A stretch of 64,000 bases of DNA from positions 87,280 to 151,279 of the forward strand of contig CAXRHZ010000041.1 in assembly GCA_964230745.1 (NCBI GenBank), read 5' to 3'. Positions 41,218 through 58,102 of the stretch are shown here, piece after piece. The position numbers and the translations under genes are program-made. Origin of the DNA: Maritimibacter sp. (lineage in GTDB: Bacteria; Pseudomonadota; Alphaproteobacteria; Rhodobacterales; Rhodobacteraceae). The first letter of the stretch is position 1; the number at the start of each line of letters is the position of its first letter. The notes below the pieces were generated by a model. It worked only from the letters and a program-made list of their open reading frames with translations, was not told where the DNA came from and did not search any database.

Positions 41218-42855
41218 ATGACGGCGGGGATCATGGCCAAACTGCATTTCGCGCTCGCAGAAGCGCTTCGCGACGGCGGCGTCGCCACCCTGTTCGGTGT
41301 CGTTGGGGATGCGAATGCCTATTTCGTTGCGGCTTACGCGGGGTTCGACGGTGCGCGCTACGTGAGCGCCTGCAACGAGAACGGGGCCGTCCTGATGGCG
41401 CTGGGCCATGCGATGACGACCGGTGGGGTGGGGTTCTGCACGGTGACCCACGGTCCGGCGCTCACCAATTGCGTGACGGCATTGACCGAAGGGGTGAAGT
41501 CCCACACGCCCGTCGTGCTCCTGTGCGGGGACACGCCGGTGGCGGATCGCGAGAACCTTCAGAACACGGACCAGAAGGCCGTGGTCCTCGCCGCCGGCGC
41601 CGGATTCGAGCAGATGCGCAGCCCGGCAACGGCGCTCGACGACCTTGCGCGGGCGGTGCGGCGGGCCAAGGCCGAGCGGCGGCCGATCGCCGTCAACATG
41701 CCCGCGGAGTTCCAGTGGGAGGAGGTCGATGCGCGCCCGGTGAGCTGGGAGGTTCCGGCCCTGGGGCCGACAGAGGTCGCGGGGGATGCGTTGGACGAGG
41801 CGGTCGGGATCATTGCCGCGGCCCGGCGTCCCGTCGTGCTGGCCGGACGCGGTGCGATTGACGATGCGTCCCGCGCGGCCCTGATCCGGCTCGCGCGCCG
41901 GATCGAGGCGCCGCTCGCCACGACGATCCGCGCCAAGAACCTGTTTCACGGAGAGGATCATGTGCTGGGCGTCTGCGGCACGGTCTCGACCCCGCAGGCA
42001 GCCGAGGCCCTGATGAGCGCCGACTGCATCATCGCCTTTGGCGCCTCGCTCAATTTCCACACGACCGGAGAGGGCGGCTATGTCGAGGGCAAGCGGGTGA
42101 TCCAGGTGGCCGACCGTGCGGAAGACCTCGGCACCGGGGCGGTGGCCGACGTGGCGATCCACGGGACCCCGGCGGCGGTCGCCGATACCTTTGCCTACTG
42201 GCTCGACGAGGCCGAGATCTCAGCCTCCGGTTTTACCCGCGACCTGCCCGCGACCGGGCTGGACGTACCGCCGCCTGCAACGCCGACGCATCCGCGCGAG
42301 GGGGCGGTGGATTTCCTCACGACCCTCGCGCGGCTGAACGACATTCTGCCCCGGGACCGCGTGCTCGTCACCGACGCCGGTCGCTGGATGGTGCGCAGTT
42401 ACGGCCTTCTGACCGCACCGCATCCGCGCGATTTCGTTACCTCGGCGAGTTTCGGGTCCATTGGCCTTGGCCTCGCCACGGCCGTCGGAGCGGGAGTGGC
42501 GCATCCCGGCCGCACGACCGTTCTGTTCAACGGGGACGGGGGGTTCATGCTGGGCAACCTCGCCGAGTTCCATTCGGCGGTGCGGGCCGGCCTCGACCTC
42601 GTGATCGTCCTGTTCAATGACGGCAGCTACGGCGCCGAGCACATCCAGTTCCGAAACAAGCAGCTCGATCCCGCGATCACCCTTTTCGACTGGCCCGATT
42701 TCGTCACGGTTGCGCGGGCGCTGGGCGGGGACGGCATCGGAATACGCGGCGCGGCGGATCTTGAGGCGCTCGGCCCGGCGCTGGAGGCGCGCGACAGGAA
42801 CCGGCCGTTCCTGATCGACGTCCACCTCGATCCCGATTGCGTCGCCATGTGGTAA
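41218..42855 (+). CDS. thiamine-pyrophosphate-dependent enzyme (acetolactate synthase-like fold)
   Basis: FGVVGDAN, NENGA (catalytic Glu), THGPALTN, NGDGGFM...NDGSYG TPP motif; start may be 41233. Confidence 0.9.
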   Translation: MTAGIMAKLHFALAEALRDGGVATLFGVVGDANAYFVAAYAGFDGARYVSACNENGAVLMALGHAMTTGGVGFCTVTHGPALTNCVTALTEGVKSHTPVVLLCGDTPVADRENLQNTDQKAVVLAAGAGFEQMRSPATALDDLARAVRRAKAERRPIAVNMPAEFQWEEVDARPVSWEVPALGPTEVAGDALDEAVGIIAAARRPVVLAGRGAIDDASRAALIRLARRIEAPLATTIRAKNLFHGEDHVLGVCGTVSTPQAAEALMSADCIIAFGASLNFHTTGEGGYVEGKRVIQVADRAEDLGTGAVADVAIHGTPAAVADTFAYWLDEAEISASGFTRDLPATGLDVPPPATPTHPREGAVDFLTTLARLNDILPRDRVLVTDAGRWMVRSYGLLTAPHPRDFVTSASFGSIGLGLATAVGAGVAHPGRTTVLFNGDGGFMLGNLAEFHSAVRAGLDLVIVLFNDGSYGAEHIQFRNKQLDPAITLFDWPDFVTVARALGGDGIGIRGAADLEALGPALEARDRNRPFLIDVHLDPDCVAMW

Positions 42856-43091: not shown

Positions 43092-44312
43092 ATGACATTC
43101 ACCACGAAATGGACAGGTCTGTCCGCCGCGGCGCTGGTCGCCGTGTCCGGCATGACTTTTGCCACCGCGGCCCAGGCGCAGGAATGGCTCGACAACCTCG
43201 AGCCGATGACGCTGAAGCTCGCCGATTTCTCCGGCAACCAGGATGCCAACTTCGGCAAGGCCATGGTCGCCTGGGAGGAATCGATCACCGAGTTCACGGA
43301 CGGCAAGATCACGTTCGAGAACTACTGGTCCTCGTCGCTTCTGGGCGCGCTCGACACGCTTTCCGGCGTGGGTGACGGGGTGGCCGACATCGGCCTCATC
43401 ATCCCGTCCTACATGCCGCAGGAACTGCCCGTCGGCTCGTGGCTCTTCGGTATGGGTGCTGCGCTGTCCGGCTCTACCGTGCATGACGTGGCCGCGGGCG
43501 GCGCGGCCGCGCTCGAAACCGTGCTGACCTTCGAGCCGCTGACCGAAGAATACGCCCGCCACAACGTGAAAGTGCTCCAGGCGACGGCGACCCCCGCCTA
43601 CAATCTGCTGTGCAACACGCCGATCTCGTCGCCCGAAGAAGCCGAGGGCAAGCGTGCCCGCGCCATCGGCGCGGTCTGGTCGGAGACGGTCGAAGCGCTT
43701 GGCATGACCCCGGTCTCCATCGCCTGGGGCGAGGCCTACGAAGGGCTTCAGCGGGGCGTGTTCGACTGCATGGTCATCAACCCGAACCAGTATGCCGACG
43801 GGCTCGTCCTCAAGGACGTGGCGCCGGAATTCGTGCCGGTGACCATGGCGCAGCTCCAGGCCTCCACCTGGGTCATCAACCTCGACGTCTGGGAAAGCTT
43901 CCCGGCGGAGCTGCAGGACTTCATCACCCAGGCCAACATCAAGGCGGCCTACGACATCTGGGAAGGTTACCTCGACATCGAGGCGAAGGCCGGTGAGCTG
44001 ATCGCGGCCGGGGAGGAGATCCACACGAACGACATCTCCTCGCTCGAACCCATCGCGCGTGAGCAGCGGGCGAACTTCGTCGCCGGTCTGGCCGATACCG
44101 CGCCCGACTCGGTCGAGGATCCGGCCGCCTTCATCGCCGACTACCAGGCGCGCATCGACTACTGGACCGATGCCCTGGAAGCAGAGGGATACGAGGTCGC
44201 CGAGCGCACACCGGAAGCCATTCTGGATGCCTTCGCGGGCCTGTCCGAGGTGGACCTGTCGAACTTCTACGAGAAGTTCAACTCCGAGTTCACCCCGGGC
44301 CTCATGAACTGA
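43092..44312 (+). CDS. dctP: TRAP transporter substrate-binding protein (DctP family, long type)
   Basis: Signal peptide, ITFENYWSSSL, GVADIG, EGKRARAIG (conserved Arg), EAYEGLQRGVFD. Confidence 0.88.
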   Translation: MTFTTKWTGLSAAALVAVSGMTFATAAQAQEWLDNLEPMTLKLADFSGNQDANFGKAMVAWEESITEFTDGKITFENYWSSSLLGALDTLSGVGDGVADIGLIIPSYMPQELPVGSWLFGMGAALSGSTVHDVAAGGAAALETVLTFEPLTEEYARHNVKVLQATATPAYNLLCNTPISSPEEAEGKRARAIGAVWSETVEALGMTPVSIAWGEAYEGLQRGVFDCMVINPNQYADGLVLKDVAPEFVPVTMAQLQASTWVINLDVWESFPAELQDFITQANIKAAYDIWEGYLDIEAKAGELIAAGEEIHTNDISSLEPIAREQRANFVAGLADTAPDSVEDPAAFIADYQARIDYWTDALEAEGYEVAERTPEAILDAFAGLSEVDLSNFYEKFNSEFTPGLMN

Positions 44313-44316
44313 AACC

Positions 44317-44351
44317 GGATGGTCCGCCCCGCATGACGGGGCGGACATTCC
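44317..44351 (+). other. GC-rich hairpin after dctP (mRNA stabilizer or attenuator)
   Basis: GTCCGCCCCG-CATGA-CGGGGCGGAC without a T tract, between dctP and dctQ. Confidence 0.55.
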
Positions 44352-44391
44352 AGGCTTGCCCGTTCGCGGGCACACGGGCGACACTCACCAC

Positions 44392-44961
44392 ATGACCGAC
44401 GTTTCCCTTCGTCCCTCAACGCCCCGGCGCCCAGAGCCGGGCATTCTGCGCATCGTGGATGCCGCAGCGCTGGCCCTTGCCGTTGTCGCCGGGTTCGCAC
44501 TCGTGCTGCTCGCCGTGAACGTGCTCGTCGACGTGATCGGGCGCGCGGGGTTCAACCAGCCTTTCACAGGCACGCTCGAGTACACGGAGAACTGGTGGAT
44601 GCCGACGCTGACGCTGCTCGCCTTCGCCTATACCGAGCGCCGGCAGGAGCATATCAAGGTGACGATCCTGCTGGACACGCTTCCGATCGCCATGCGCCGG
44701 GTCGTGGAGGGGGTTTTCGGGACCATTGCGACCGTGCTTCTCCTGGCGCTTGCCTGGCACGGGCTGAGCGAGGCGCTGGAAGCGGCGGAGTATCGTCAGA
44801 CCACGGCCTCCAGCCCGCCGGTGGCGATCTGGCCGTTCAAGTTCGCGGCGCCTCTGGGCGTGCTCGCGCTCGCCCTTCAGATGGCAGCGACGAGCTATCG
44901 CTACCTCGCAGGCCACCTGCCGCGGACCGGCGGCGACGATCATGAAGGCGAAGCCGTATGA
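44392..44961 (+). CDS. dctQ: TRAP small permease
   Basis: 4 TM segments, DVIGR..FNQP..G..E, HIKVTILLD. Confidence 0.9.
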   Translation: MTDVSLRPSTPRRPEPGILRIVDAAALALAVVAGFALVLLAVNVLVDVIGRAGFNQPFTGTLEYTENWWMPTLTLLAFAYTERRQEHIKVTILLDTLPIAMRRVVEGVFGTIATVLLLALAWHGLSEALEAAEYRQTTASSPPVAIWPFKFAAPLGVLALALQMAATSYRYLAGHLPRTGGDDHEGEAV

Positions 44962-46433
44962 CCAGCCCGACCGAAACCCTGCCGATGCGCGCGGTATCCC
45001 GCGTCGGGATCGCGATCTTCGTCATCGGGCTCGTGGTCGCCGCCGGGTCGCTCTGGGGCATGCTCGCGGCGGACCTGCCCAAGGAGATCACCGGGCTACT
45101 CATCGTCGTCCTGTCCATCGTGCTGCTGCTCATGGGCATACCCGTAGGGGTGGCCATGCTGGGGGCCGCGGTGGTGGGTCTCTATGCGCTGAGCGGGGGG
45201 CGGGTCGTGCGCTCGACCATGGAGAGCGTGGCTTTCGACGCCACCGCGTCATGGTCGCTGTCGGTGATCCCGATGTTCATCCTGATGGGCATGATCCTGT
45301 GGAAGTCGGGCCTCACCACCTCGGCCTTCTCGGCCGCGCGGGTCTGGCTGGGCTGGATGCCCGGCGGGCTCGCCGTCGCCACGAATTTCGCGGGCGCCGC
45401 GCTCGCGGCGAGTTCCGGGAGCACCATCGGCATCACTTATGCGCTGGGCCGCGTGTCGATCCCGGAAATGCTCAAATCCGGCTACAATCCCCAACTCGCC
45501 GTCGGTTCAGTGGCCGCCGCGGGGACATTGGGCCAGATCATCCCGCCTTCGCTCCTGCTCGTGGTCTATGCCGGTGCGGCCTCGCTCCCCGTGGGACAGC
45601 AGCTTCTCGCGGGCGTCGTGCCCGGCGTGATCCTGGCCGTGGCGTTTGGCGTCATGATCGTTGTTCATGCCAGCCTGCGCCCGGGTTTCGCGCCGCGCGC
45701 CGATATGTCCGACGTCACCTGGGCGATGCGGCTGCGGGCGCTGGTCGAGGGCATACCGATCGCAATCGTGATCCTGATCGTCATTGGCGGCCTGTTCGCG
45801 GGGATCTTCACGGCGACCGAGGCCGGGGTCTGCGGCATGATCGCGGCGCTCATCCTGGGCGTCCTCCACCAGCTTCGCCAACGCACGAGCCTTCGCGAAA
45901 TCGGCGCGATGCTGCGGGCCGCACTGATCGGCACGCTGACCGGCACCGCCTCGGTCTTTCTCCTGATCGTGGGCGTCGCCGTCCTCACCCGTGCCATGGC
46001 GCTGAGCCAGGTGCCCAACTTCATCGCCAGCGGGATCGCGGAGATGGGGCTCGGGCGGATCGAGCTGCTGTTCATCCTGATCGGCGCCTACCTCATCCTG
46101 GGGATGTTCATGGACACGCTCGCGATGATGCTCCTGACCATTCCTGTTCTGCTCGGACCGCTCGCCTCGGTCGGGGTCGATCCGTTATGGTTCGGCGTGT
46201 TCCTCGTGGTCATGGCTGAGGTCGGGTTGCTCACGCCGCCTTTGGGCATTCTCACATTCATCGTCCATCGCATCGCGTCGGACCCGGAGGCGAACCTCGG
46301 GCGGCCCATATCGCTCGGCACCGTGTTCCTGGGCGTGCTGCCCTTCGCCCTCACCGCCATTGCGGTCGTGGTGTTCCTCATCTTCGTGCCGGAGATCGCC
46401 ACATGGCTGCCGGGCCTCAGCACGGGTCGATGA
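44958..46433 (+). CDS. dctM: TRAP large permease
   Basis: IPMFILMG, GGLAVAT, ASSGS, GTLGQIIPPS, TATEAG, EVGLLTPPLG. Confidence 0.93.
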   Translation: MTSPTETLPMRAVSRVGIAIFVIGLVVAAGSLWGMLAADLPKEITGLLIVVLSIVLLLMGIPVGVAMLGAAVVGLYALSGGRVVRSTMESVAFDATASWSLSVIPMFILMGMILWKSGLTTSAFSAARVWLGWMPGGLAVATNFAGAALAASSGSTIGITYALGRVSIPEMLKSGYNPQLAVGSVAAAGTLGQIIPPSLLLVVYAGAASLPVGQQLLAGVVPGVILAVAFGVMIVVHASLRPGFAPRADMSDVTWAMRLRALVEGIPIAIVILIVIGGLFAGIFTATEAGVCGMIAALILGVLHQLRQRTSLREIGAMLRAALIGTLTGTASVFLLIVGVAVLTRAMALSQVPNFIASGIAEMGLGRIELLFILIGAYLILGMFMDTLAMMLLTIPVLLGPLASVGVDPLWFGVFLVVMAEVGLLTPPLGILTFIVHRIASDPEANLGRPISLGTVFLGVLPFALTAIAVVVFLIFVPEIATWLPGLSTGR

Positions 46434-46473: not shown

Positions 46474-47142
46474 ATGACGACACCGGAAACCGCCTCTCGC
46501 AAGGAACAGCGCGAAGCCTCGGATCGCAAGATGCTGCGCGCGGCCACTGCACTGGTCAGCAAGCGGGGCATCGCAGGGGCCAAGCTGTCGCAGATCGGGC
46601 TTGACGCGGGGTACAGCGCGAACCTTCCGGTGCAGCGCTTCGGGACCAAACTCGCCCTGCTGATCGCGGTGCTGGACGGGATCGAGGCGCGGTTCCTGCG
46701 CCACGTGGAGGCGCGTGTCGGCACGCGGCGCGGGGCCGAGGCGCTGGCCGAGCGCATCCGCCTCCAGCTCGAGGCCGTGCGCGACATGCCCGAGAGTGCC
46801 ATCGCGCTCTACCATCTCATCATCGAAAGCACCGGTTCGATGCCGGACCTCAGGCCAAGGGTCGCGAGGCTGCAAGAGGCCTACCACCGCAACCTGCGCA
46901 CCTATCTCGAGCAGGCTCAGGCAGCGGGCGAGCTTGCCCCTGGCATGGATATCGAACGCGCGGCGCGGGTGATTTCCGGGGCGATCGGCGGGATGTCGAT
47001 GCAGGCGATTGTGGAAGAGCGGACCCGGGCGCTGGGCGACGACGCCCCGGCGCTGGCCGAAATGCTTCTGGCCCCCGTCCTCGCGAAAGGGGTCAGTCCT
47101 GCGCGACCCGGGACTGCGTCGCCTCGATCTCCTCGCGGATGA
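46474..47142 (+). CDS. TetR family transcriptional regulator
   Basis: RKMLRAATALVSKRG...LSQIGLDAGYS..L....FGTK HTH; 3' end overlaps the convergent IclR gene by 50 bp. Confidence 0.85.
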   Translation: MTTPETASRKEQREASDRKMLRAATALVSKRGIAGAKLSQIGLDAGYSANLPVQRFGTKLALLIAVLDGIEARFLRHVEARVGTRRGAEALAERIRLQLEAVRDMPESAIALYHLIIESTGSMPDLRPRVARLQEAYHRNLRTYLEQAQAAGELAPGMDIERAARVISGAIGGMSMQAIVEERTRALGDDAPALAEMLLAPVLAKGVSPARPGTASPRSPRG

Positions 47143-47869
47143 TCGCCTTCCACATCGCGATGCGCTCCTCGTCCACCTCGTCCGCGTGGACGGCGATGGA
47201 AATGGCGAGGTCGGGTTCTTCCGCGAAGGCGCGAACGCCCATGCCGAGGCCATAGATCGACTTGTACGCGCGGGCCCGGCTTTCGGAGAACCCGGAGGCC
47301 CGCGTGGCCGCGACCGCCGCGCGCACGCTCTCGGCATCGAGGTTCTCGTATCCTGCGAGGTCGGGTGCGATGGTCTCGATCACCCTGTCGACGGTGGCAT
47401 CGGGCAGCCCCGCCAGCAGGGCCGTGGCGCCCGCGCCGACACCGAGGTAGCGCCGCTGCCCCACTTCCACCGGGATCACGCGGATCACGGCGCGCCCCTC
47501 GGCCTTGTGGACGCAGACCGCCTCGAAGGCGGACCGGCGCATGAGATAGGTCGTCACGTTGGACCGGGCCGCCACCCGGTCGACGCAGGCGGTCCAGGGC
47601 GCGAGCTGCAACACCTGGTCGCTCACGGCGAGGCCGAGCTCGTAGCTCAGCATGCCGACTTCGTACTTGCGCGTCGCTGGATTATAGGCGGCGAGCCCGG
47701 TGTCGGTCAGGCTCTTGAGGATACGGTGCGTGGTCGAGCGGGCAAGCCCGACGGAGTCGGAGATGCGGCGCAGGTTCATCGGGCCTTCGTCGGAGACATG
47801 GGCGATCTGCTTTAGGATCGCAGCCGCGCGCCGGATCGCCTGTGTGCCGTCCTGGTTTTCGTCTTTCAT
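47093..47869 (-). CDS. IclR family transcriptional regulator
   Basis: QAIRRAAAIL, GLARSTTHRIL..L...G, GAGATALLA, AISIA. Confidence 0.92.
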   Translation of the reverse strand: MKDENQDGTQAIRRAAAILKQIAHVSDEGPMNLRRISDSVGLARSTTHRILKSLTDTGLAAYNPATRKYEVGMLSYELGLAVSDQVLQLAPWTACVDRVAARSNVTTYLMRRSAFEAVCVHKAEGRAVIRVIPVEVGQRRYLGVGAGATALLAGLPDATVDRVIETIAPDLAGYENLDAESVRAAVAATRASGFSESRARAYKSIYGLGMGVRAFAEEPDLAISIAVHADEVDEERIAMWKAIIREEIEATQSRVAQD

Positions 47870-47897
47870 GCAAGCTCCCCGCCGGTGTCGCGGCACA

Positions 47898-49472
47898 TTA
47901 GCCGGTGTCCCCGGCCGATGCCACCAGCGCGGCGGCCCGCGCACGCAGGTCAGGCTTGCGCACCTTGCCCACAGCGTTCACGGGCAGGGCCTCGAGGCGT
48001 TCGAGCACTTCGGGAAACTTCTGTTTCGCCAGCCCCGCGGCGTCCAGGTGTCGGGTCATGGCCGGCATGTCGAACCCTTCGGAGGCGACGACGAAGGCGA
48101 CGACGATTTCGCCGCGTGCCGCGTCCGGCGCACCGACCACGGCGACATCCGATACATCAGGATGGGCGAGGAGGGCGTTCTCTATCTCGACCGGGCTTAT
48201 GTTCTCGCCCTTGCGGATGATGATGTCCTTCTTGCGTCCGGTCACCACGACGAAACGGTCGTCCACGATCCGCCCGAGATCGCCCATGCGGAAGAACCCG
48301 TCTTCGGTGAAGGCGCCGGCATCGTGCTGCGGGTCGAGGTAGCCGGGAAACATCTGCGGGCCGCGCAGGACGATCTCGCCGTCGTCGAGCCGGAGGTCGA
48401 GCGCCATCTCGCCATCGGTATCGGCATGCGCCTCTGCAGCGGCGCGGTCGCGGATGCCGGGGCAGGCGAGGGGGACTTCGGTGGAGCCGTAGGCGCGGGA
48501 GACAACCGTGGCCGGCCATGCCGCCAGGGCTTCGCGCACGAGTTCGGGCGGGACCGAGGCGCCGCCGCAGATGAACCGGCGCAGCGTGGGCAGGTCGCTC
48601 CCGGCGCGCGCGGCAGAGGCCAGCAGCCCCGACAGGAACGGCGTGGCGCCGGCCATGAAGGTCGCGCCTTCGTCGTCGATCCGGGCCACCGCCCGGTCTG
48701 GGTCCCAGCCATCCTCCAGCACGGTGCGGCAGCCGGTGATCCAGGGAAACTCGAACGCATAGATCGAGCCGCCGATATGGCCGATGGGGGAGGGAACGAA
48801 GAGCACGTCCGCGTCTGCGAGCCCCCAGAAGCCCGCCGTGCCCCTCACGACCGCGTCCATGCTGTCATGGGTGTGGATCACGCCCTTGGGGGTTCCCGTG
48901 CTGCCGGAGGTGAAGATGATCATTTTCGCGTCGCGGCTGTCGGGAAGACGGGGCGTGGCTGCGGCGCCCGATGTCAGCGCCTCGAAGGTGAGAGGGCCGT
49001 TGCCGCGCACCGTCACGACATGGTCTGGCGGTGTGTCGAGCGAGGCGACGAGGCCCGGGTAGTCGACCTTGCCCGCCGGCGGGATGAAAATCGCTTCGAC
49101 CCCGCAGGCGGGCAGGATCGCCGAGAGCTCGGCCTTGCGATAGATCGGGAGGAGCGGGACGATCCGGTAGCCTGTCAGCGCGGCGGCGAGGTTGAGGACG
49201 GTCGCCTCCCACCAGTTCGGGAGCTGAAAGGCGATGGCGGCGCCGGGCGTGAGACCGAGCCGGTCGAGGCCGCCCGCGAGCCGGAGCGCCATGTCGACCA
49301 TATCGCCGCGGGTGAGACGCGTGTCGCCCTGTCTCAGAATTTCGACGTCCGGGGCCTGGGTGCGAAGGTCCAGCGCGATCTCGCCCAACGTCGGGCTGCG
49401 CGGGGCCCGGTGCCGACCGGCCGCGTCAAGGTCGCGCATCCGGGCCGCGAGCCGGTCGACCGCGCCGGTCAT
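47898..49472 (-). CDS. acyl-CoA ligase (cyclohexanecarboxylate-CoA ligase/FadK-like AMP-binding enzyme)
   Basis: FTSGSTGTPKGVIHTH, YGSTE, FRMGDLG, GRKKDIIIRKGENI, AVGKVRK. Confidence 0.88.
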   Translation of the reverse strand: MTGAVDRLAARMRDLDAAGRHRAPRSPTLGEIALDLRTQAPDVEILRQGDTRLTRGDMVDMALRLAGGLDRLGLTPGAAIAFQLPNWWEATVLNLAAALTGYRIVPLLPIYRKAELSAILPACGVEAIFIPPAGKVDYPGLVASLDTPPDHVVTVRGNGPLTFEALTSGAAATPRLPDSRDAKMIIFTSGSTGTPKGVIHTHDSMDAVVRGTAGFWGLADADVLFVPSPIGHIGGSIYAFEFPWITGCRTVLEDGWDPDRAVARIDDEGATFMAGATPFLSGLLASAARAGSDLPTLRRFICGGASVPPELVREALAAWPATVVSRAYGSTEVPLACPGIRDRAAAEAHADTDGEMALDLRLDDGEIVLRGPQMFPGYLDPQHDAGAFTEDGFFRMGDLGRIVDDRFVVVTGRKKDIIIRKGENISPVEIENALLAHPDVSDVAVVGAPDAARGEIVVAFVVASEGFDMPAMTRHLDAAGLAKQKFPEVLERLEALPVNAVGKVRKPDLRARAAALVASAGDTG

Positions 49473-50254
49473 GACTTGCGCGACCGTGCGAGGAAGGCTT
49501 CGACCCGGGCCTCGTGTTCGGCCGTGCGTACGCTGCGCGATTCCAGCTCCATTCCGGTTTCCATCATCTCGCTGGCGAGCCGTCTGAGCTCCGTGTTCAT
49601 GACGGTCTTGGTCCAGCGCATCGCCTGGGACGGTCCTGAAAGGAGCCTCTCGCAGAAGGCGTCGACCCTGGTATCGAGCTCGGCATCCGGGACCACATGG
49701 TTCACGAGCCCGATTTCGCCCGCACGCGCGGCGGTGAGGATCTCGCCCGTGAAGAGGAATTCCTTGGCCCTATGCAATCCGATGAGGGCGGGCCAGATGA
49801 TCGCGCCGCCGTCGCCGGCGACGAGGCCGATGGAGACATGCGGGTCGCCGATCTTCGCGCTTTCGGCGGCGAAGGTGATGTCGCAGAAGAGCGCGATGGT
49901 CGCCCCCAGACCCACGGCGGGGCCGTTGATGCGGGCAATCACGGGTTTGTCGATCTCAAGCAGCGTGTGGATCAGCGCCTTTGCCTCGTCGACCTCCTTG
50001 TCGAACAGGCTTGGTTCGTCGATCACACGGCGCATCCCCTCTATATCGCCCCCTGCGGAAAAGGCACGGCCCGCCCCCGTGAGGACCACAACGTCCGAGC
50101 CGTCGTCGTCGCGGGCGAAGGCGAGCGCGTCGACGATCTCGGCATGCATCGGGCCGCCGAAGGCGTTGAGCGTCTCCGGCCGGTTCAGGGTGATCGTGAG
50201 GCGCCGTTTGTCACGGCGCAAATGCAGCGTTTCGAAGTCCGGCGTGTCACTCAT
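49469..50254 (-). CDS. crotonase-superfamily enzyme lacking the canonical Glu pair
   Basis: AFSAGGD, AVGLGA, GDPHVSIGLVAGDGG..IWP; start overlaps the upstream ACAD stop (ATGA). Confidence 0.9.
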   Translation of the reverse strand: MSDTPDFETLHLRRDKRRLTITLNRPETLNAFGGPMHAEIVDALAFARDDDGSDVVVLTGAGRAFSAGGDIEGMRRVIDEPSLFDKEVDEAKALIHTLLEIDKPVIARINGPAVGLGATIALFCDITFAAESAKIGDPHVSIGLVAGDGGAIIWPALIGLHRAKEFLFTGEILTAARAGEIGLVNHVVPDAELDTRVDAFCERLLSGPSQAMRWTKTVMNTELRRLASEMMETGMELESRSVRTAEHEARVEAFLARSRKS

Positions 50255-51168
50255 CGTTCCCCCCACCTCGCGTCAGCGTAGTCCAGTTGGGCCTGCGCCG
50301 CACCGCCCATTTCGGCCCGAAGCGCCCGGGCGCGGTAGGTCCAGCGGTGCAAGGGGTGTTCGAGGGTGAGACCCATGGCGCCCATGAACTGATGCAGGTC
50401 GTAGCCGATCCGGGTCGCATGGCCCTGCAGGTATCCGAGCGCCTGGGCTGCGTCGGCAGGGGCGCGGGTTGCCGCCGCCCTGAGCGTCATGAGCTCGCCT
50501 GCCTCGATACGCACCGCGTCTTCCGCGAGCCGGTGCTGCACACCCTGAAAGCTGCCCAGCGGTCGCCCGAACTGCTCGCGCTCGCGCAGGTATTGCAGGA
50601 CCGAAGCGAGCCCTCCGGCCAGCACGCCGCCCAACTCGGCGGCGAGCGCCACCGACCATAGTGTGCGGATCGACACGGGGTCGGTGTCGATGTCCTGCCA
50701 GTCAGGCGACGCGGTCAGGACGCCCATCGGGTAGGCGTAGAGGCTGTCCACGCGCCGGGTTACTCCCTCCACGCCGGCCCACCGCAGCCCGCCGTCGGTG
50801 ATCGACAGGAGCGCACGGGCCTGCGGCAGGAAGCGCACCGCGCCCGGCGCGTCGTCGACCACCACCGCGAGCGGGCGGGGGAGGTCGATGCCGAGGAACG
50901 GGCGCAGGAGCGAGGTTGCGGCGCATTCCAGCACCACGGGTGTCTTCGCCACCGCGTGAACCATCGCGGCCGCGGCGACCGGTCCAAGCTCCGCCTCGCG
51001 GGCCGCGTCGAAGAAGCCGGCCTCGGCCAGCCTGTCGTCGAGCGCGTGGCCATAGTCGTGGCGCCCCCAGCCCTCGACCGTGCGAAAGCCCGCCTCGGCC
51101 TCGTCCGACAGCATCTGTTCGAGCACGGTGGCGAAGGTCGCCTGATCTTCGTTGAACGCCAGCCGCAT
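50251..51168 (-). CDS. acyl-CoA dehydrogenase, short (putative non-catalytic) subunit
   Basis: 305 aa; YLREREQFGRPLGSFQGVQHRLA, HQFMGAMGLTLEHPLH. Confidence 0.85.
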   Translation of the reverse strand: MRLAFNEDQATFATVLEQMLSDEAEAGFRTVEGWGRHDYGHALDDRLAEAGFFDAAREAELGPVAAAAMVHAVAKTPVVLECAATSLLRPFLGIDLPRPLAVVVDDAPGAVRFLPQARALLSITDGGLRWAGVEGVTRRVDSLYAYPMGVLTASPDWQDIDTDPVSIRTLWSVALAAELGGVLAGGLASVLQYLREREQFGRPLGSFQGVQHRLAEDAVRIEAGELMTLRAAATRAPADAAQALGYLQGHATRIGYDLHQFMGAMGLTLEHPLHRWTYRARALRAEMGGAAQAQLDYADARWGER

Positions 51169-51170
51169 GG

Positions 51171-52313
51171 TCAGGCCCCCCTGGGAAGGTTGAGGTGACG
51201 GCGCGCCACGAGGTTGAGCTGGATCTCGGCGGCGCCGGCGGCGATGCCCGTGACGATGGCGCGTTCGTGGTGGGCCTGGAACGCGGGATGTTCGTCACCC
51301 GAATAGCAGTCGGGCAGGAAGTCCATTCCGAAATCCGTCACCTTGTGATCCGCCTCCACCACCGCCACGCGGGCGAGGTTCGCGGCGGTTCCCGGCGGCA
51401 CGCCGCGGGCCCGTTCGTCCACGACCCGGTAGACCAGCATCCGTGCTGCATCGCAGGCCATCGCGGCTTCGGCTGCGCGTCCGCGCACGAGCGCGTTGCC
51501 GAAACCGCCCCGCGCTTTCAGCTCCGCGACCATCGCGTCGAGCTCACGCGCCGACATCTCGTAGCGGGGGATGCCGACGCGTTCGTTCGAGAGGGCGTAG
51601 GAGATGATGGTCCAGCCTTCGCCTTCTTCCCCCAGCATGGCCGAGGCCGGGACGCGCACGTCGGTGAAGAACACCTCGTGGATGTCGCCATGTCCGATCA
51701 GGCTCGGGATCGCGCGCACCTCGATCCCCGGCGTGTCCATCGGGAGGAGGAAGATCGCGATGCCGCCGCGCCCCTCGCCGGTGCGGGCCAGCAGGAAACA
51801 GGTGTCGGCGAGGCCGGCGTAGGAGGTCCAGATCTTCTGCCCGTTGATGACGTAGTCGTCGCCGTCGCGCAACGCGCGGGTGCGCAGGCTCGCGAGGTCG
51901 GATCCCGCGCCGGGTTCCGAGAAGCCCTGGCACCAGATCGCGCGGCCTTCGGCCATGGGGGGGAGATAGCGGCGTTTCTGTTCGTCCGAGCCGTAGCGCA
52001 TCAGGACCGGGCCGATCCAGTTGACGTTCATGTATTGCCCGCCGCGCGGCTCGCCCGCCGCCCACATCTCTTCGCCCAGGATGAAATGCTCCCACGTTGG
52101 CCGGTCCGCGCCGCCCCAGTCCGCGGGCCAGTGCGGCACGAGAAGCCCCGCTTCGGCGAGTTTCGGGCAGAAATCGAGGCTGAACTCGGTCTGTTCGCGT
52201 GACCCGGGCCCGTGGCGTGCGATACTCTGCCAGTCGCCGGGCAATTCGCGCGCGAGGAAGTCGCGCACCTTGGCGCGGAAAGCGTCGTTTTCCTCCGACC
52301 ACGCGAAGTCCAT
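51171..52313 (-). CDS. acyl-CoA dehydrogenase, long (putative catalytic) subunit
   Basis: WCQGFSEPGAGSDLASL, NGQKIWTS, LSNERV, IAAGAAEIQLN. Confidence 0.92.
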   Translation of the reverse strand: MDFAWSEENDAFRAKVRDFLARELPGDWQSIARHGPGSREQTEFSLDFCPKLAEAGLLVPHWPADWGGADRPTWEHFILGEEMWAAGEPRGGQYMNVNWIGPVLMRYGSDEQKRRYLPPMAEGRAIWCQGFSEPGAGSDLASLRTRALRDGDDYVINGQKIWTSYAGLADTCFLLARTGEGRGGIAIFLLPMDTPGIEVRAIPSLIGHGDIHEVFFTDVRVPASAMLGEEGEGWTIISYALSNERVGIPRYEMSARELDAMVAELKARGGFGNALVRGRAAEAAMACDAARMLVYRVVDERARGVPPGTAANLARVAVVEADHKVTDFGMDFLPDCYSGDEHPAFQAHHERAIVTGIAAGAAEIQLNLVARRHLNLPRGA

Positions 52314-52322
52314 GTGGTAACT

Positions 52323-52339
52323 CTCCCATTATGTGAGAC
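52323..52339. promoter_or_regulatory. 17-bp operator-like motif, copy in the divergent ACAD promoter region
   Basis: CTCCCATTATGTGAGAC overlapping the RBS of the minus-strand ACAD; weaker copy at 52480-52496. Confidence 0.55.
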
Positions 52340-52365
52340 ATATGTGCCTCAAGCGGATGCCATCG

Positions 52366-52433
52366 AACATGCCGAGGCGTTCTGCCACTGTCAACAGCTC
52401 GCAGCTTGACCTTATGTTTCTAGTGAGTATAGC
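52366..52433. promoter_or_regulatory. back-to-back sigma70-like promoters
   Basis: Minus strand TTGACA (52394-52389) N17 CATGTT; plus strand TTGACC (52406-52411) N16 TATAGC. Confidence 0.45.
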
Positions 52434-52516
52434 CTGCCCCTGCCGTGTCGGGATGCATTCCGGCGCATGGTGCTCGACCATATCACTATATGGAACGAAT
52501 GGGCGACGGGAGGAAT

Positions 52517-53647
52517 ATGGAACTCACGCCGACAACGGAAGACGCGGCTTTCCGCGCTGCTGCGCGCGACTGGCTCATGGCCAATCGCCCAGAGGGACCC
52601 GCGCCGCGCGAAGGGCGGGCGGCGCGCGACTACGCTACCGACTGGCTTGCACGGTGCCACGAGGGTGGCTGGTCCGGGCTCGCATGGCCCGCGGACTACG
52701 GCGGGCAGGGGCTTTCGCCCGCGCGGCTCATCACTTGGTACGAGGAATACGTGCGCGCCCGGGCGCCATCGGCGCTGGACTGCACCTTCGTCGCGCTGAA
52801 CCACGCAGGGCCGACAGTAATCGCGCGCGGGACCGAGGAGCAGAAGGCCTTCCACCTGCCGCGAATCCTCGAGGGCCGGTCGATCTGGTGCCAGGGGTTT
52901 TCCGAACCGGGGGCGGGATCGGACCTCGCCAGCCTGCGCACGACGGGGCGGGTCGAGGGCAACGAACTGGTGGTCAACGGTCAGAAGATCTGGTCGAGCT
53001 ATGCCGATGTCGCAGATTACCAGGAGCTTCTGATCCGCACCGAGCCGGGGTCGTCGCGCCACAAGGGCCTGTCCTGGGTGATCTGCGACATGAGCCTGCC
53101 CGGGATCACCGTCCGCCCGATCGCGAACATGGCGGGCGTCACGCATTTCGCCGAAGTGTTCTATGACGACGTGCGTATCCCGCTCTCGGACGTGGTGGGC
53201 GATCTGCACGACGGCTGGTCCGTGGCGATGACCACGCTCGCCTTCGAGCGACGCACTGCCGCGCTCGCCCTGCAACTGGAGTTGTCGGTGAAGGTCGAAG
53301 ACCTGATCGCGCTGGCCGAGGCACCCGCCGGCTCCGCGACCGCCGAACGCCTCGCCGATCTCAGGGCCGAGGCCGCGGCGATCCGCGCGATGACATGGCG
53401 CACAGCGTTACGCGAACCGGCGACACCCTTCGACGGGTCGCTCGTCCGGCTGAGTTTCGCGGAACTGGCGCAGCGGGTGCACCGGGCCACGATGGACGTG
53501 TTGGGCCCTGCCGGGCTGACCGACAGCGACTGGTCGCACGCCTATCTCGAAAGCTATTCGGAAACCATCGCCGGGGGGACCGCCGAAATCCAGCGCAACA
53601 TCATCGCCGAGCGGTTCCTGGGCCTGCCGAGGGAGCCGCGCACATGA
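52517..53647 (+). CDS. acyl-CoA dehydrogenase, long (putative catalytic) subunit
   Basis: WCQGFSEPGAGSDLASL, NGQKIWSS, LAFERR, IAGGTAEIQRNIIAERFLGLPREP; RBS GGGAGG. Confidence 0.92.
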   Translation: MELTPTTEDAAFRAAARDWLMANRPEGPAPREGRAARDYATDWLARCHEGGWSGLAWPADYGGQGLSPARLITWYEEYVRARAPSALDCTFVALNHAGPTVIARGTEEQKAFHLPRILEGRSIWCQGFSEPGAGSDLASLRTTGRVEGNELVVNGQKIWSSYADVADYQELLIRTEPGSSRHKGLSWVICDMSLPGITVRPIANMAGVTHFAEVFYDDVRIPLSDVVGDLHDGWSVAMTTLAFERRTAALALQLELSVKVEDLIALAEAPAGSATAERLADLRAEAAAIRAMTWRTALREPATPFDGSLVRLSFAELAQRVHRATMDVLGPAGLTDSDWSHAYLESYSETIAGGTAEIQRNIIAERFLGLPREPRT

Positions 53648-54555
53648 GTTATGACCTGACGCCGGGCGAAGACCTGCGCCAGATCCTCGACGCCGCCGAG
53701 GCGATGCTGGCGACGCATTATCCCGTGGCGCGTCTGCGGGAGGGGGCAGGGGACGACCTTGCCCCGCTCGAAGAGTTCGGGGCCTTCGCGCTCGCCCTGC
53801 CGGAGGCGGACGGGGGCGCGGGGTTCACCCTCGTGGAAGAGGCGCAGTTGCATGTCGCGCTGGGCCGGCACCTCGTCAGTCCCCGCGCCCTTGCCACCGC
53901 GCTCGCCCGGCGGATCGACGGGCAGGCGACGGCCTGCGCCGGGGTCGTGGACGGCGCGGACTGGCTCGCTCTCGGTCCGGACGGGGCGGAGACGATCCTC
54001 GTGCGGACCAAAGACGGGCTCGTTCTGTCGGCCCTGGGTCAGGCCAAGCAGGTCGAGTCGCTGGGCCACGGCCTGCCACTCGCCCGTGTCGCGCCCGGTG
54101 CAGACAACCGGCGGGCGGACGAGACGATGCTGGGCGTCGCGCGACTGCTTACTTCGGCGCAGCTTCTGGGGGTTGCGATGGGCGCCGCGGACCTCGCCGT
54201 GGACTACGCGAAGACGCGGGAGCAGTTCGGGCGGCCCATCGGCAGTTTCCAGGCGATCAAGCATCATGCCGCGGACATGGCGATGGGGGTCGAACAGGTC
54301 TCGGCGCTGATCGACATGGCCGCCATCGCCCTGCGCGACGGGCACGACGATGCGCGGTTCCAGCTCGCGGCGCTGGCGCGGCTCGCCCCGCGCGTGGCGC
54401 TGGCCAACGCGCGCACGGGCATCCAGATCCACGGCGGCATCGGCTTCTCCGCCGAGGCCGACGCGCAGCTCTATCTCAAGCAGGCGCACCTCCTGCGCCA
54501 GTTCCTCGGAGCGGACGACCTGATGGAGGCCGCCGCGCCGCTCACGCCCTACTGA
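53644..54555 (+). CDS. acyl-CoA dehydrogenase, short (putative non-catalytic) subunit
   Basis: 303 aa; YAKTREQFGRPIGSFQAIKH, QIHGGIGFS.E; ATGA overlap with the upstream ACAD. Confidence 0.85.
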   Translation: MSYDLTPGEDLRQILDAAEAMLATHYPVARLREGAGDDLAPLEEFGAFALALPEADGGAGFTLVEEAQLHVALGRHLVSPRALATALARRIDGQATACAGVVDGADWLALGPDGAETILVRTKDGLVLSALGQAKQVESLGHGLPLARVAPGADNRRADETMLGVARLLTSAQLLGVAMGAADLAVDYAKTREQFGRPIGSFQAIKHHAADMAMGVEQVSALIDMAAIALRDGHDDARFQLAALARLAPRVALANARTGIQIHGGIGFSAEADAQLYLKQAHLLRQFLGADDLMEAAAPLTPY

Positions 54556-54566
54556 AAGGACAGATC

Positions 54567-55370
54567 ATGCGAACCGCCCTCATCACCGGCGCGTCGAGCG
54601 GTATCGGCCTCGCCACCGCGCGCAAGTTCCTGAGCGAAGGCGTGGCGGTTGTGGGCGTCGCCCGCAGCGCAGACAAGCTCGCCGCCGCGGTCGAGAGCTG
54701 CGCCGATCTGCCGGGCAGGATGGTGCCCTGCGCGCTCGACATCACGGCGGACGATGGGCCCGCGCGGGCGGTGAAGGCGGCGCTCGACGAATTCGGCCGG
54801 CTCGATCACCTCGTCAACAACGCCGGGATCGGAAGCCCGGAGCCGGTCCACAGCACGGACGACGAGACGCTCGACCGTTTCCTCGACATCATGCTGCGCG
54901 CACCCTTCCGGCTTGCGCGCGAGGCGCTCGCGGCGTTCGGTGAGATCGCGACCATCGTGAACGTCTCCTCCACATACGCGATCGTGGGGGGGCTGCGCGG
55001 CGGGGCCTACTCGGCGGCCAAGGCCGGGCTGAACGGGCTCACGCTCCACATGGCGGCGCAATACGGTTCCTCCGGCGTCCGGTCGAACGCGGTCGCGCCG
55101 GGCGTAATCCCGACACCCATGACGGAGCACCGACTAGAGGTCGAAGCGTTCCGGCGCATGAACCACGACATGACGCCCGCTGCCCGCTGGGGCACGGTCG
55201 AGGACGTGGCCGAGGCGATCTGGTTCCTGTCCTCGCCCGCTTCGGGCTGGATCAACGGTCAGGTCCTTGCCGTCGATGGCGGCTGGACCTCGACCAAGTT
55301 CCTGACCGAGGCGGCCTTGTCGGCGGAGCGCGTCCTGCGCCCGGTGGACTGGAGCCATTCCGGGCGCTGA
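54567..55370 (+). CDS. short-chain dehydrogenase/reductase
   Basis: TGASSGIG, NNAG, NVSS, YSAAK, APGVI.T. Confidence 0.93.
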   Translation: MRTALITGASSGIGLATARKFLSEGVAVVGVARSADKLAAAVESCADLPGRMVPCALDITADDGPARAVKAALDEFGRLDHLVNNAGIGSPEPVHSTDDETLDRFLDIMLRAPFRLAREALAAFGEIATIVNVSSTYAIVGGLRGGAYSAAKAGLNGLTLHMAAQYGSSGVRSNAVAPGVIPTPMTEHRLEVEAFRRMNHDMTPAARWGTVEDVAEAIWFLSSPASGWINGQVLAVDGGWTSTKFLTEAALSAERVLRPVDWSHSGR

Positions 55371-55379
55371 GATTACGCG

Positions 55380-57392
55380 TCAGCGCTTGTCTGCCAGCCG
55401 GTTCGCCGCGAACTCCGCGAACCAGTCGAGGGCTGCGGGATTGCGAGTCGCATCCTTCGAGGCGACCTTTTCAGGCGCTTCACCGAGGAGCATGCGGCGC
55501 ACCGGCACCTCCATCTTCTTGCCCGTAAGGGTCGTGGGGATTTCCGGGACCGCGACGATCACGTCCGGCACGTGGCGCGGCGAGCGTTCGCTGCGCAGGC
55601 GGCGCACGATTTCCGCCTCGGTGTCCGGGGTGAAGGATGTGCCCGGCGCCATCTGGACGAAAAGCGGCATGTAGTAGCCTCCGCCTTCCTCCTCGATGCA
55701 GACGATCAGGCTGTCTGCGATCTCCTCGAACCCTTCCACGGTGCGGTAGATCTCGGCCGACCCGATGCGCACGCCGAAGCGGTTGAGCGTCGCGTCGGAG
55801 CGCCCCAGCACGTAGGAGCCGCCGCGCGCGTTGAACCGCACCCGGTCGCCGTGGCGCCAGATGCCCGGATACATGTCGAAATAGCTGTCGTGGTAGCGGC
55901 TGAAATCCGGGTCGCCCCAGAGAAAGAGCGGCATGGACGGCATCGGCTGCCGCATCACGAGTTCGCCCACCTCGCCGGTCGGGGCGGGTTTGCCGCTCTC
56001 GTCCAAGGCGGTGGCATCGCAGCCGAGCGCGGGGGCCTGTATCTCGCCCGCATGGGCGGGGAGGAGCGGGGATCCGGCGAGGATGCCCGAGCAGATTTCC
56101 GTGCCGCCAGATTGGGATGTGGCGTAGATGTCCGCTTTGATCGCGTCATGGACCCAGGCGAGAATCTCGGGCGTGACGGGGGAGCCGGTGAGGAGGATCG
56201 TCTCCAGCGGGGCGATGTCGAATTCTTCGCCGGGCCGGATGCCCTGGCCGCGCACCATCTGCATGAAGGTGGGTGAAACGCCGAAGGTGGTCACGCCGGT
56301 CTCTGCCATGAGCCGCCAGAGCGCACGGGCGTCCGGATATGTCGGGTGGCCGTCGTAGAGCGTCACGCATCCGTTCAGCATCGGGCCCATCATCAGCGTG
56401 TTCCAGACCATCCACCCGGTCGTGGAATAGCAGAACTGCACCGCGCCCTCGTGCATGTCGAGGTGGAAGGCACCGGACTTCAGGTGCTCCAGCACGATCC
56501 CGTGGTGCCCGTGGACGATGGGCTTGGGGAGCCCCGTGGTTCCGGAGGAGAACAGCGTCCAAAGCGGGTGGTCCGAGGGGACGCGGATGTATTCGAACGC
56601 CTCGCGGGGCACGTCGGGCCCGTCGAGGAGGCTCTCCCATGCCAGCGTCTTGCCGGGAAATGCCGGGGACCCCGCGTTGGGCAGGTAGTCGAGCAGGACC
56701 AGCGTTTCGGCGCTGGGCAGATGGTCGAAGATGCGCTCGAGTTCGCTCGTGCGGTCGTGGTCCTTGCCGCCGTAGCGGTAGCCGTTCACCGCGAAGACCA
56801 GCTTGGGTTCGATCTGGCCGAACCGGTCGATCACCGTCTGCGCGCCGAACTCGGGCGCGGCGGAGGCCCAGGTCGCCCCGATCGCGGTGGTCGCGAGCAT
56901 GGCGACGACGGTTTCGGGGATATTGGGCATGTAGGCCACGATCCGGTCGCCGGGGACGATGCCCATCTCGCGCAGGCGTGTCGCCAGGCGACGCACTGCG
57001 CCCGCGATATCGGCCCAGCTCAGCCAGGCCACGTCGGGGCGCGTTTCGGACATGTGCGCGATCATCGGTCGGGCCGGGTCGCCCGTCGCCTCGTGGCGCA
57101 GGACGTGTTCGGCGTAGTTGAGCCGGGTGCCGGTGAACCAACGGGTATGCGGCATCGGGTCGTCGGTCATCACCGCGTCCATCTCGCCGTCGTGGATGAT
57201 GTCGAAATAGTCCCAGACCGCGCGCCAGAAGCCCGGCACATCCTCGACCGACCAGCGCCAAAGGTCAAAGTAGCCTTCGAATTCCTTGCCGCGCTCGGTT
57301 GCGAGCCAGTTCAGGAACCGGGTGGTCTCGACGCGGGCCCGGCGCTCGTCGTTGGCGCGCCAGAGTTCCTGGCCTTCTGTCACTTCGGTCAT
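55380..57392 (-). CDS. acetoacetate--CoA ligase
   Basis: LWRWSVED...FW, LNYAEH.LR, FSSGTTGLPKPIVH.H.G, WMVWN, SGGTEI, WRHGD, GRSDATLNRFGVRIG, GKKMEVPV. Confidence 0.92.
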   Translation of the reverse strand: MTEVTEGQELWRANDERRARVETTRFLNWLATERGKEFEGYFDLWRWSVEDVPGFWRAVWDYFDIIHDGEMDAVMTDDPMPHTRWFTGTRLNYAEHVLRHEATGDPARPMIAHMSETRPDVAWLSWADIAGAVRRLATRLREMGIVPGDRIVAYMPNIPETVVAMLATTAIGATWASAAPEFGAQTVIDRFGQIEPKLVFAVNGYRYGGKDHDRTSELERIFDHLPSAETLVLLDYLPNAGSPAFPGKTLAWESLLDGPDVPREAFEYIRVPSDHPLWTLFSSGTTGLPKPIVHGHHGIVLEHLKSGAFHLDMHEGAVQFCYSTTGWMVWNTLMMGPMLNGCVTLYDGHPTYPDARALWRLMAETGVTTFGVSPTFMQMVRGQGIRPGEEFDIAPLETILLTGSPVTPEILAWVHDAIKADIYATSQSGGTEICSGILAGSPLLPAHAGEIQAPALGCDATALDESGKPAPTGEVGELVMRQPMPSMPLFLWGDPDFSRYHDSYFDMYPGIWRHGDRVRFNARGGSYVLGRSDATLNRFGVRIGSAEIYRTVEGFEEIADSLIVCIEEEGGGYYMPLFVQMAPGTSFTPDTEAEIVRRLRSERSPRHVPDVIVAVPEIPTTLTGKKMEVPVRRMLLGEAPEKVASKDATRNPAALDWFAEFAANRLADKR

Positions 57393-57610
57393 GCGGGGCC
57401 TTTCCGTTGGTATGAGTTGTGCGGGAGGGCGCGGCTGGCCCGGTGTGCTGGTGTGCACGGCGTCTGGTCCAAAGTTGCCTCCCGTCTTGCGCGATCCTCC
57501 GACGCGCCGGGCGAGTATGGCGCGGGGACCGGGTGGCCGCCAGCCCCCGCGTCGCGTCGCGGTTGCCGGCCTGACGGCTTCGCGGCAGGATGAACGCGAT
57601 GGGAGAGGAC

Positions 57611-58102
57611 ATGAGCGAAATACACGAAGGGGGATGCCTGTGCGGACGCGTCCGTTACCGCACGACCGGCGCCCCGGTGCGGGCCGGCGTGTGCCATTGC
57701 CGGTATTGCCAGACCCGCAGCGGGAGCGCCTTCGGCCTCTCGGTCTATTTCGACCCCAAGCAGGTCGAGCACCTCTCCGGCGATTTGACCGACTACAGCT
57801 TCACCAGCGAGAGCGGCCGCGCGTTCAGCACGCGCTTCTGTGCCCGGTGCGGCACGACGGTATTCTGGTCGCTCGAACTGTTCGGCGACGCGGTGGCGGT
57901 TGCGGGCGGCACGTTCGACCCGCCGACGTTCTGGTACGACATCGGGCGCGAGGTGTTCTGTCGCAGCCAGGCGCCCTTTGTCCGGATCGACGCCGGGGAA
58001 AGCCACGCGACGAGTGCCAGTCATGCCCCGGACCGCGCCGAGCGCCCGGAGCTTTCGGGGCAGGTGGGCGGGGAAGGTGAACATTCCCGTCAGGGTAGTT
58101 GA
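57611..58102 (+). CDS. GFA/CENP-V family Zn-binding protein
   Basis: GGCLCG.VRY, CHCRYCQ, RFCARCG. Confidence 0.9.
   Translation: MSEIHEGGCLCGRVRYRTTGAPVRAGVCHCRYCQTRSGSAFGLSVYFDPKQVEHLSGDLTDYSFTSESGRAFSTRFCARCGTTVFWSLELFGDAVAVAGGTFDPPTFWYDIGREVFCRSQAPFVRIDAGESHATSASHAPDRAERPELSGQVGGEGEHSRQGS

Follow-up and report, generated by a model that had tools for sequence, protein, structure and literature searches.

A crotonase with a His/Asp dyad in a seven-gene cluster of Maritimibacter, a candidate coenzyme A-dependent carbon-carbon hydrolase

In the 64,000-nucleotide stretch of the Maritimibacter sp. genome analysed here (assembly GCA_964230745.1, contig CAXRHZ010000041.1, positions 87,280 to 151,279), hereafter called the window, a minus-strand gene encodes a crotonase which lacks both catalytic glutamates of enoyl-coenzyme A (CoA) hydratase (ECH) and carries the His/Asp dyad of 6-oxocamphor hydrolase (OCH). 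The analysis suggested, with a probability of about 55%, that this enzyme is a CoA-dependent retro-Claisen (reverse Dieckmann) hydrolase cleaving a bulky or cyclic 3-oxoacyl-CoA, similar to BadI and EchA20 in its reaction and equipped with the water-activating dyad of OCH. The gene is part of a seven-gene core, which consists of a CoA ligase, two paired acyl-CoA dehydrogenases, a short-chain dehydrogenase/reductase (SDR) and the crotonase itself, and which recurs in other genomes (Table 1).

Active-site residues and their conservation

Pfam ECH_1 was matched with 163.9 bits against a cut-off of 27 (E 5.6e-48), which places the protein in the crotonase superfamily. Within NCBIfam it stayed under the cut-off in every crotonase family shown, the best match being the EchA15 subfamily PRK07327, whose curated cut-off was missed (191.6 of 292 bits), and neither BadI nor MenB families were among its best 25 matches. 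The predicted structure (pLDDT 93.7) gave Z scores of 30 to 36 against solved crotonases; the closest structure was 3RRV (Z 36.5, root-mean-square deviation (rmsd) 1.6, 251 residues aligned), and the values were Z 34.4, rmsd 1.9 and 256 aligned residues for 3Q1T, and Z 31.9, rmsd 2.0 and 243 aligned residues, up to residue 248, for OCH. A search of the ESM Atlas returned generic ECH clusters only. The PDB matches 7EUM, 9ULA and 28BQ were rejected as close relatives, being two-Glu enzymes, and served only to fix the register.

In the alignment with the two-Glu hydratases 7EUM and 9ULA, GDPH falls on GQPE without gaps, which puts His139 at the Glu164 position of rat ECH, and a published structural table likewise places H146 of 3Q1T on E164 (PMC3584854). 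The same alignment sets GLGAT on GGGCE and thereby Thr119 at the Glu144 position. The original prediction was thus right that both hydratase glutamates are absent and that the histidine of GDPH holds the second place, whereas the alanine of AVGLGA, which it had assigned to the first, is Ala118, one residue before. The crotonases of the window's own genome follow the same register, the two-Glu ones having E at 119. Residues 128-169 of the OCH chain 1SZO, aligned to the window crotonase, pair H139 with H145 and D148 with D154; the OCH numbering and context given in the original prediction proved correct, as did the spacing of nine residues between His and Asp.

As far as the alignments indicate, this His/Asp pair is half of a four-residue signature made up of His37, His139, Asp148 and Glu238. 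The catalytic residues listed for the Anabaena beta-diketone hydrolase (ABDH) are His43, His144, Asp153 and Glu243, matched to His44, His146, Asp155 and Glu244 of 3Q1T (PMC3584854), and 3Q1T aligns with the window crotonase exactly at these ABDH-type places. In OCH (CamK; 1O8U, 1SZO), His45, Asp142, His145, Asp154, Trp160 and Glu244 correspond to His37, Asp137, His139, Asp148, Trp154 and Glu238 of the window crotonase.

The results showed that H37, T119, D137, H139, D148, W154 and E238 are invariant among 120 homologues, and that H139, D137 and E238 are kept in all of 83 loci, at identities down to 39%, with His37 kept in 80 of the 82 loci covering it. The scan patterns held Asp148 and Gly68/69, which makes the counts of these residues across the 80 genome loci circular; H139, D137, E238 and His37 lie outside the patterns, and chance is ruled out for the residue pattern by the invariance in the homologues and the 83 of 83 loci for residues outside the search patterns. 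The Glu144 position is held by Thr or Ser in 82 of 83 loci, and the hydroxyl kept there may have a role; OCH-like proteins, unlike the window family, carry Glu at this position (104/104). Each column of the two oxyanion-hole motifs, FSAGGD and GLG, was conserved in 119 to 120 of the 120 homologues, a count based on sequence only, and residue 63 is Arg in 113 of them. Judged by its residues, the window crotonase is not a canonical hydratase.

Relationship to OCH and ABDH

For comparison with OCH, we used a near-copy of that enzyme (P0121, with the length and numbering of 1O8U) together with 104 full-length relatives. OCH and ABDH (2J5G, 2J5S) share 30% identity with the window crotonase at Z scores of 31 to 32. 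In OCH, Trp40 and His122 take over the role of the usual backbone oxyanion hole and bind the enolate of the ketone. Both residues occur in 104 of 104 OCH-like proteins, and they are Phe32 and Gly117 in the window crotonase, where Glu124 of OCH has no counterpart either. OCH has His122-Pro123 where the window crotonase has GLG (residues 115-117), and its first oxyanion-hole loop differs from the FSAGGD loop and is two residues shorter. Behind Glu238 the window family continues for 23 to 30 residues, in contrast to mostly 7 to 18 behind Glu244 of OCH; the last helix is absent from most of the OCH-like proteins. ABDH has Phe instead of Trp40 and keeps the His122 counterpart; it is described as CoA-independent in a title cited in PMC3584854.

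In a tree of 53 proteins, which had a small outgroup and left ABDH aside, the OCH-like proteins formed their own group (100/100) on a long branch with the window crotonase outside it. The window family, the OCH-like proteins and an EchA15-like protein lay together on one side of a branch (96/94) that separated them from seven other crotonases of the same genome. With Trp40 and His122 absent, both oxyanion-hole motifs and the C-terminal helix kept, and a place outside the OCH clade, the window crotonase is, by its sequence features, not an OCH.

Proposed reaction and its alternatives

The retro-Claisen C-C cleavage named in the original prediction remains the most likely chemistry, since the His/Asp pair is that of OCH and two further catalytic residues of OCH and ABDH (H37 and E238) accompany it. 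The free cyclic beta-diketone substrate of OCH, which that prediction had also carried over, found no support, since the window crotonase has neither Trp40 nor His122 and retains the CoA-thioester motifs. The simplest reaction that would use both a water-activating centre of the OCH type and a complete thioester oxyanion hole is the hydrolysis of a 3-oxoacyl-CoA. BadI and EchA20 are crotonases for which such hydrolysis of a cyclic 3-oxoacyl-CoA, a reverse Dieckmann reaction, is established (PMC5380842, PMC13689101); the window crotonase would bring it about with other residues.

We propose that the adjacent CoA ligase would activate an imported carboxylic acid, from which the paired dehydrogenases and the SDR would make a 3-oxoacyl-CoA, probably one with a ring or a branched chain. 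Its thioester carbonyl would be bound in the standard backbone oxyanion hole (NH of Gly69 and Leu116), while the dyad of His139 and Asp148, together with His37 and Glu238, would activate a water molecule for addition to the ketone at C3. Cleavage between C2 and C3 would follow, the thioester enolate being held in the oxyanion hole until it is protonated, and the predicted product would be a ring-opened dicarboxylic acid mono-CoA ester. That the substrate is cyclic and the reaction ring-opening is inferred from the neighbouring genes; the paired large and small acyl-CoA dehydrogenases, a type known from steroid and pimelate pathways, have PimC, PimD and IpdE2 as best matches, all below cut-off, and hint at a bulky or cyclic acid.

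The shared core contains neither a thiolase nor a two-Glu hydratase, and the lack of a thiolase leaves the C-C cleaving step otherwise unfilled. In several fuller clusters of other genomes there is a candidate hydratase besides, either of the MaoC type or a crotonase with the Glu144 equivalent, which is also in favour of a hydrolase. Several points weigh in the other direction. About ten thiolases elsewhere in the genome make the thiolase-free cluster weak evidence, and the window crotonase could itself be the hydratase, given that the core offers no other and that the genome holds no orthologues of the accessory genes. The signature of the SDR is of the NADP(H) type, which would fit a reductase better than a 3-hydroxyacyl-CoA dehydrogenase like BadH. 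On its own, His37 has no diagnostic value, as PaaG also has His there, and the tree has long branches besides its small outgroup. Crotonases are, moreover, promiscuous, as is exemplified by ThnL, which lacks one Glu and works as a hydratase, its side activity as a hydrolase amounting to no more than 0.06% (PMC13689101).

An atypical enoyl-CoA hydratase, or a hydratase which subsequently cleaves its product as Oah and HCHL do, is possible but in our view unlikely. It would act on a bulky enoyl-CoA supplied by the neighbouring dehydrogenases, with His139 protonating C2, and Asp148, Glu238 and His37 activating water for addition to C3. The gene is the only crotonase of the shared core and lies directly behind a dehydrogenase pair, His139 occupies the place of the C2-protonating Glu164, the oxyanion hole is intact, the SDR looks NADP(H)-type, and ThnL provides a precedent for hydration without one Glu (PMC13689101). 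All four polar residues, however, match C-C hydrolases rather than hydratases, the fuller clusters hold other hydratase candidates, and the housekeeping two-Glu hydratase of the window's genome (C52:50491) could serve for hydration.

A different enolate reaction was judged less probable again. His and Asp serve thioesterase, isomerase and decarboxylase reactions in other crotonases, and the window crotonase might accordingly be a thioesterase forming an Asp anhydride (compare 4-chlorobenzoyl-CoA dehalogenase), a double-bond isomerase (compare PaaG) or a decarboxylase. PaaG is its third NCBIfam match (164.7 of 345 bits), yet all such families score far below cut-off, and the PaaG-like Asp lies 8 residues past the Glu164 position, whereas the window Asp lies 9 past it, in the OCH register.

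Improbable to a slightly greater degree is a CoA-independent beta-diketone hydrolase of the OCH/ABDH kind, which would cut a cyclic 1,3-diketone in its free form and leave the resulting keto acid to be activated by the ligase. Four of the five OCH polar active-site residues are kept, this function was predicted for the relative 3Q1T (PMC3584854), and OCH-like genes too lie among CoA-pathway genes. The latter observation means that the gene neighbourhood, which we had considered as proof of CoA dependence, had to be rejected as such. Against a free diketone stand the exchange of Trp40 and His122, the CoA motifs which are lost in OCH and kept here, the position outside the OCH clade, and the transporter, which is a TRAP or ABC system of the carboxylate type. 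The database names and Pfam ECH_1 point to an ordinary crotonyl-CoA hydratase of beta-oxidation; this is very improbable, given that neither Glu144 nor Glu164 is present and that the gene has a patchy distribution, with 2 carriers among the 150 genomes sampled from the family.

The gene cluster in the window and in other genomes

The cluster is laid out as two divergent units (Table 1): the minus-strand unit holds the large and small subunits of one dehydrogenase, the crotonase and the ligase, and the plus-strand unit holds the second large/small pair and the SDR. The ATG of the crotonase gene overlaps the stop codon of the upstream acyl-CoA dehydrogenase gene, and its stop codon overlaps the ATG of the downstream ligase gene. 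Both dehydrogenase large subunits keep the Glu in the expected catalytic ER motif. The two dehydrogenase operons are separated by a divergent promoter region of about 200 base pairs (52314-52516), which is a likely, predicted target of IclR. The attempt to name the substrate from the neighbours failed, as the ligase, dehydrogenases, SDR, thiamine-diphosphate (ThDP) enzyme and DctP score below family cut-offs or have distant structures only.

Table 1. Positions in the window of the crotonase gene, its active-site features and the neighbouring genes
Feature	Position	Strand	Remark	Basis
His/Asp crotonase gene (P0001)	49469..50254	minus	261 aa	open reading frame (ORF) check, Pfam ECH_1, NCBIfam scores
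His139	49838..49840	minus	OCH His145; rat ECH Glu164 position; proposed general base	alignments
Asp148	49811..49813	minus	OCH Asp154; dyad partner	alignments
His37	50144..50146	minus	OCH His45, ABDH His43, 3Q1T His44	alignments
Glu238	49541..49543	minus	OCH Glu244, ABDH Glu243, 3Q1T Glu244	alignments
Thr119	49898..49900	minus	rat ECH Glu144 position	alignments
First oxyanion-hole/CoA loop	50045..50062	minus	FSAGGD, residues 65-70	alignment
Second oxyanion-hole motif	49904..49912	minus	GLG, residues 115-117	alignment
C-terminal helix	49475..49522	minus	residues 245-260	predicted structure, alignment
Acyl-CoA ligase	47898..49472	minus	best family cyclohexanecarboxylate-CoA ligase, far below cut-off (283.5 of 792)	
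Paired acyl-CoA dehydrogenase 1, small subunit	50251..51168	minus		NCBIfam, Pfam
Paired acyl-CoA dehydrogenase 1, large subunit	51171..52313	minus	PimC-like, below cut-off	
Paired acyl-CoA dehydrogenase 2, large subunit	52517..53647	plus	376 aa from ATG set by homologues; ORF caller starts at 52445	
Paired acyl-CoA dehydrogenase 2, small subunit	53644..54555	plus	IpdE2/PimD-like, below cut-off	
SDR	54567..55370	plus	YxxxK and Arg after strand 2, NADP(H)-type signature	
IclR regulator	47093..47944	minus	start probably near 47869; in most related clusters	
TetR regulator	46474..47142	plus	variable part of cluster	Pfam
TRAP transporter dctP-dctQ-dctM	43092..46433	plus	branched-chain ABC transporter instead in other clusters	
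ThDP enzyme	41218..42855	plus	adjoins cluster in several relatives	

The ThDP enzyme has only distant PDB relatives and could be a second C-C cleaving step. It accompanies the cluster in loci L085, L087, L092 and L097 (49-81% identity) and, by Pfam, in L089. On the other side, an acetoacetate-CoA ligase (55380-57458, above its NCBIfam cut-off) and a GFA-family gene (57590-58102) flank the cluster; neither was found in any of the related loci fetched, so that both are probably outside the cluster and were left out of the pathway.

All seven core genes were found in 12 other loci of Rhodobacterales and Hyphomicrobiales at 49-90% identity, and a thirteenth locus, which ends at a contig edge, holds six of the seven. 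The cluster is shared by many bacteria of soil and sea; the carriers include Mesobacterium, Maritimibacter, Chachezhania, Pseudoruegeria and Sinisalibacter as well as Martelella, Mesorhizobium, Pararhizobium, Microvirga and Terrarubrum, and the cluster-linked crotonases sampled form one tree group (99/91). The 300 genomes of the order sampled gave no match at E 1e-85, but only 8 candidates were scored per genome, so that this does not show absence from the order. The patchy spread of the cluster, its location on a plasmid in Terrarubrum (L097) and the adjoining repABC replication genes in Chachezhania (L093:592-4165) together suggest a mobile accessory pathway.

Fuller clusters add a MaoC-type protein, a second crotonase with a Glu144 equivalent, an NMO/FabK-like flavoprotein or a second SDR, and none of these accessory genes has an orthologue in the window's genome, which is 92% complete. 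The flavoprotein is paired with a PRK06190-like crotonase at L004:13737-15474, L084:4902-6580, L085:35-1811, L095:18223-19950 and L097:3200-4896; this crotonase keeps the Glu144 equivalent and has His at the Glu164 position, and the two together are reminiscent of the IpdC/EchA20 pair in the degradation of steroid rings. Just past the cluster in genome G117 there is a second His/Asp crotonase (L084:15745-16665), which is of the EchA15 type (DGH...GDH). A relative with 47% identity (L096:7986-8783) is carried on plasmids of at least 10 Sphingobium Tom strains, beside dehydrogenase and SDR genes in another layout.

Size of the family and significance

At least 561 relatives were found among the 600 motif matches listed in data holding one genome per species, and 7376 of 8000 proteins scored passed E 1e-40, the dyad having been checked in part of them. 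Hundreds to thousands of genes named 'enoyl-CoA hydratase', including relatives of mycobacterial EchA15, belong to the His/Asp group and are probably misnamed. The family is known but poorly characterised, structures of relatives having been public since 2005-2011, and in the literature searched we found neither a natural substrate of the His/Asp crotonase group nor a description of the seven-gene cluster. A specialist would not be surprised by the assignment, since the residue pattern and a hydrolase prediction were published in 2013 for the relative 3Q1T (PMC3584854). What the cluster adds is a compact operon, conserved and provided with a transporter and a regulator of its own, which offers a practical route to a natural substrate. 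A CoA-dependent retro-Claisenase, if true, would be useful for alicyclic acid breakdown or biocatalysis. A wider and rather doubtful extension of the proposal is that the crotonase may supply C-C cleavage to a mobile, so far undescribed pathway of alphaproteobacteria, often with the ThDP enzyme, in which hydration and ring cleavage proceed without a thiolase, that its very large CoA-dependent family may be the stock from which the CoA-independent OCH and ABDH arose, and that the cluster may be the handle for the family's first natural substrate.

Comparison with known crotonases

Rat ECH (1EY3/1DUB) shares the fold and the oxyanion hole with the window crotonase and differs in the replacement of Glu144 by Thr119 and of Glu164 by His139. 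BadI (2-ketocyclohexanecarboxyl-CoA hydrolase) and EchA20 (HIEC-CoA hydrolase) share the proposed reaction type and the pathway slot, with a ligase, dehydrogenases, an SDR and a ring hydrolase, but probably belong to a different, MenB-like subfamily. Compared by way of MenB and the NCBIfam scores, the MenB chains gave about 99-103 bits against 164 for 3RRV. Unlike in the BadI and EchA20 systems, the window neighbours score far below the AliA, AliB and PimC/D cut-offs, and the cluster is without IpdAB or thiolase.

The structural-genomics His/Asp crotonases (NCBIfam PRK07327) comprise 3RRV of M. paratuberculosis, the EchA15 group with 3QK8, 3Q1T and 7M3W, and 1WZ8 of Thermus. In a study by Mills et al. 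(2022, ACS Chem Biol 17:395), three structural-genomics 'ECHs' with a predicted hydrolase function reportedly proved better hydrolases than hydratases; this was not counted as evidence. The 3RRV/EchA15 group has the same His37/Asp137/His139/Asp148/Glu238 set as the window crotonase, lacks the hydratase Glu residues and keeps the CoA-type loop, at 32-36% identity, and 3RRV is the best sequence match (E 3.5e-47). The window protein reads DPH..GDG as 3RRV does, in contrast to DGH..GDH in EchA15, and differs from the group in having Thr at the Glu144 position and in residing in a proteobacterial seven-gene cluster. In general, the window crotonase belongs with these 3RRV/EchA15-like His/Asp crotonases, which look CoA-dependent.

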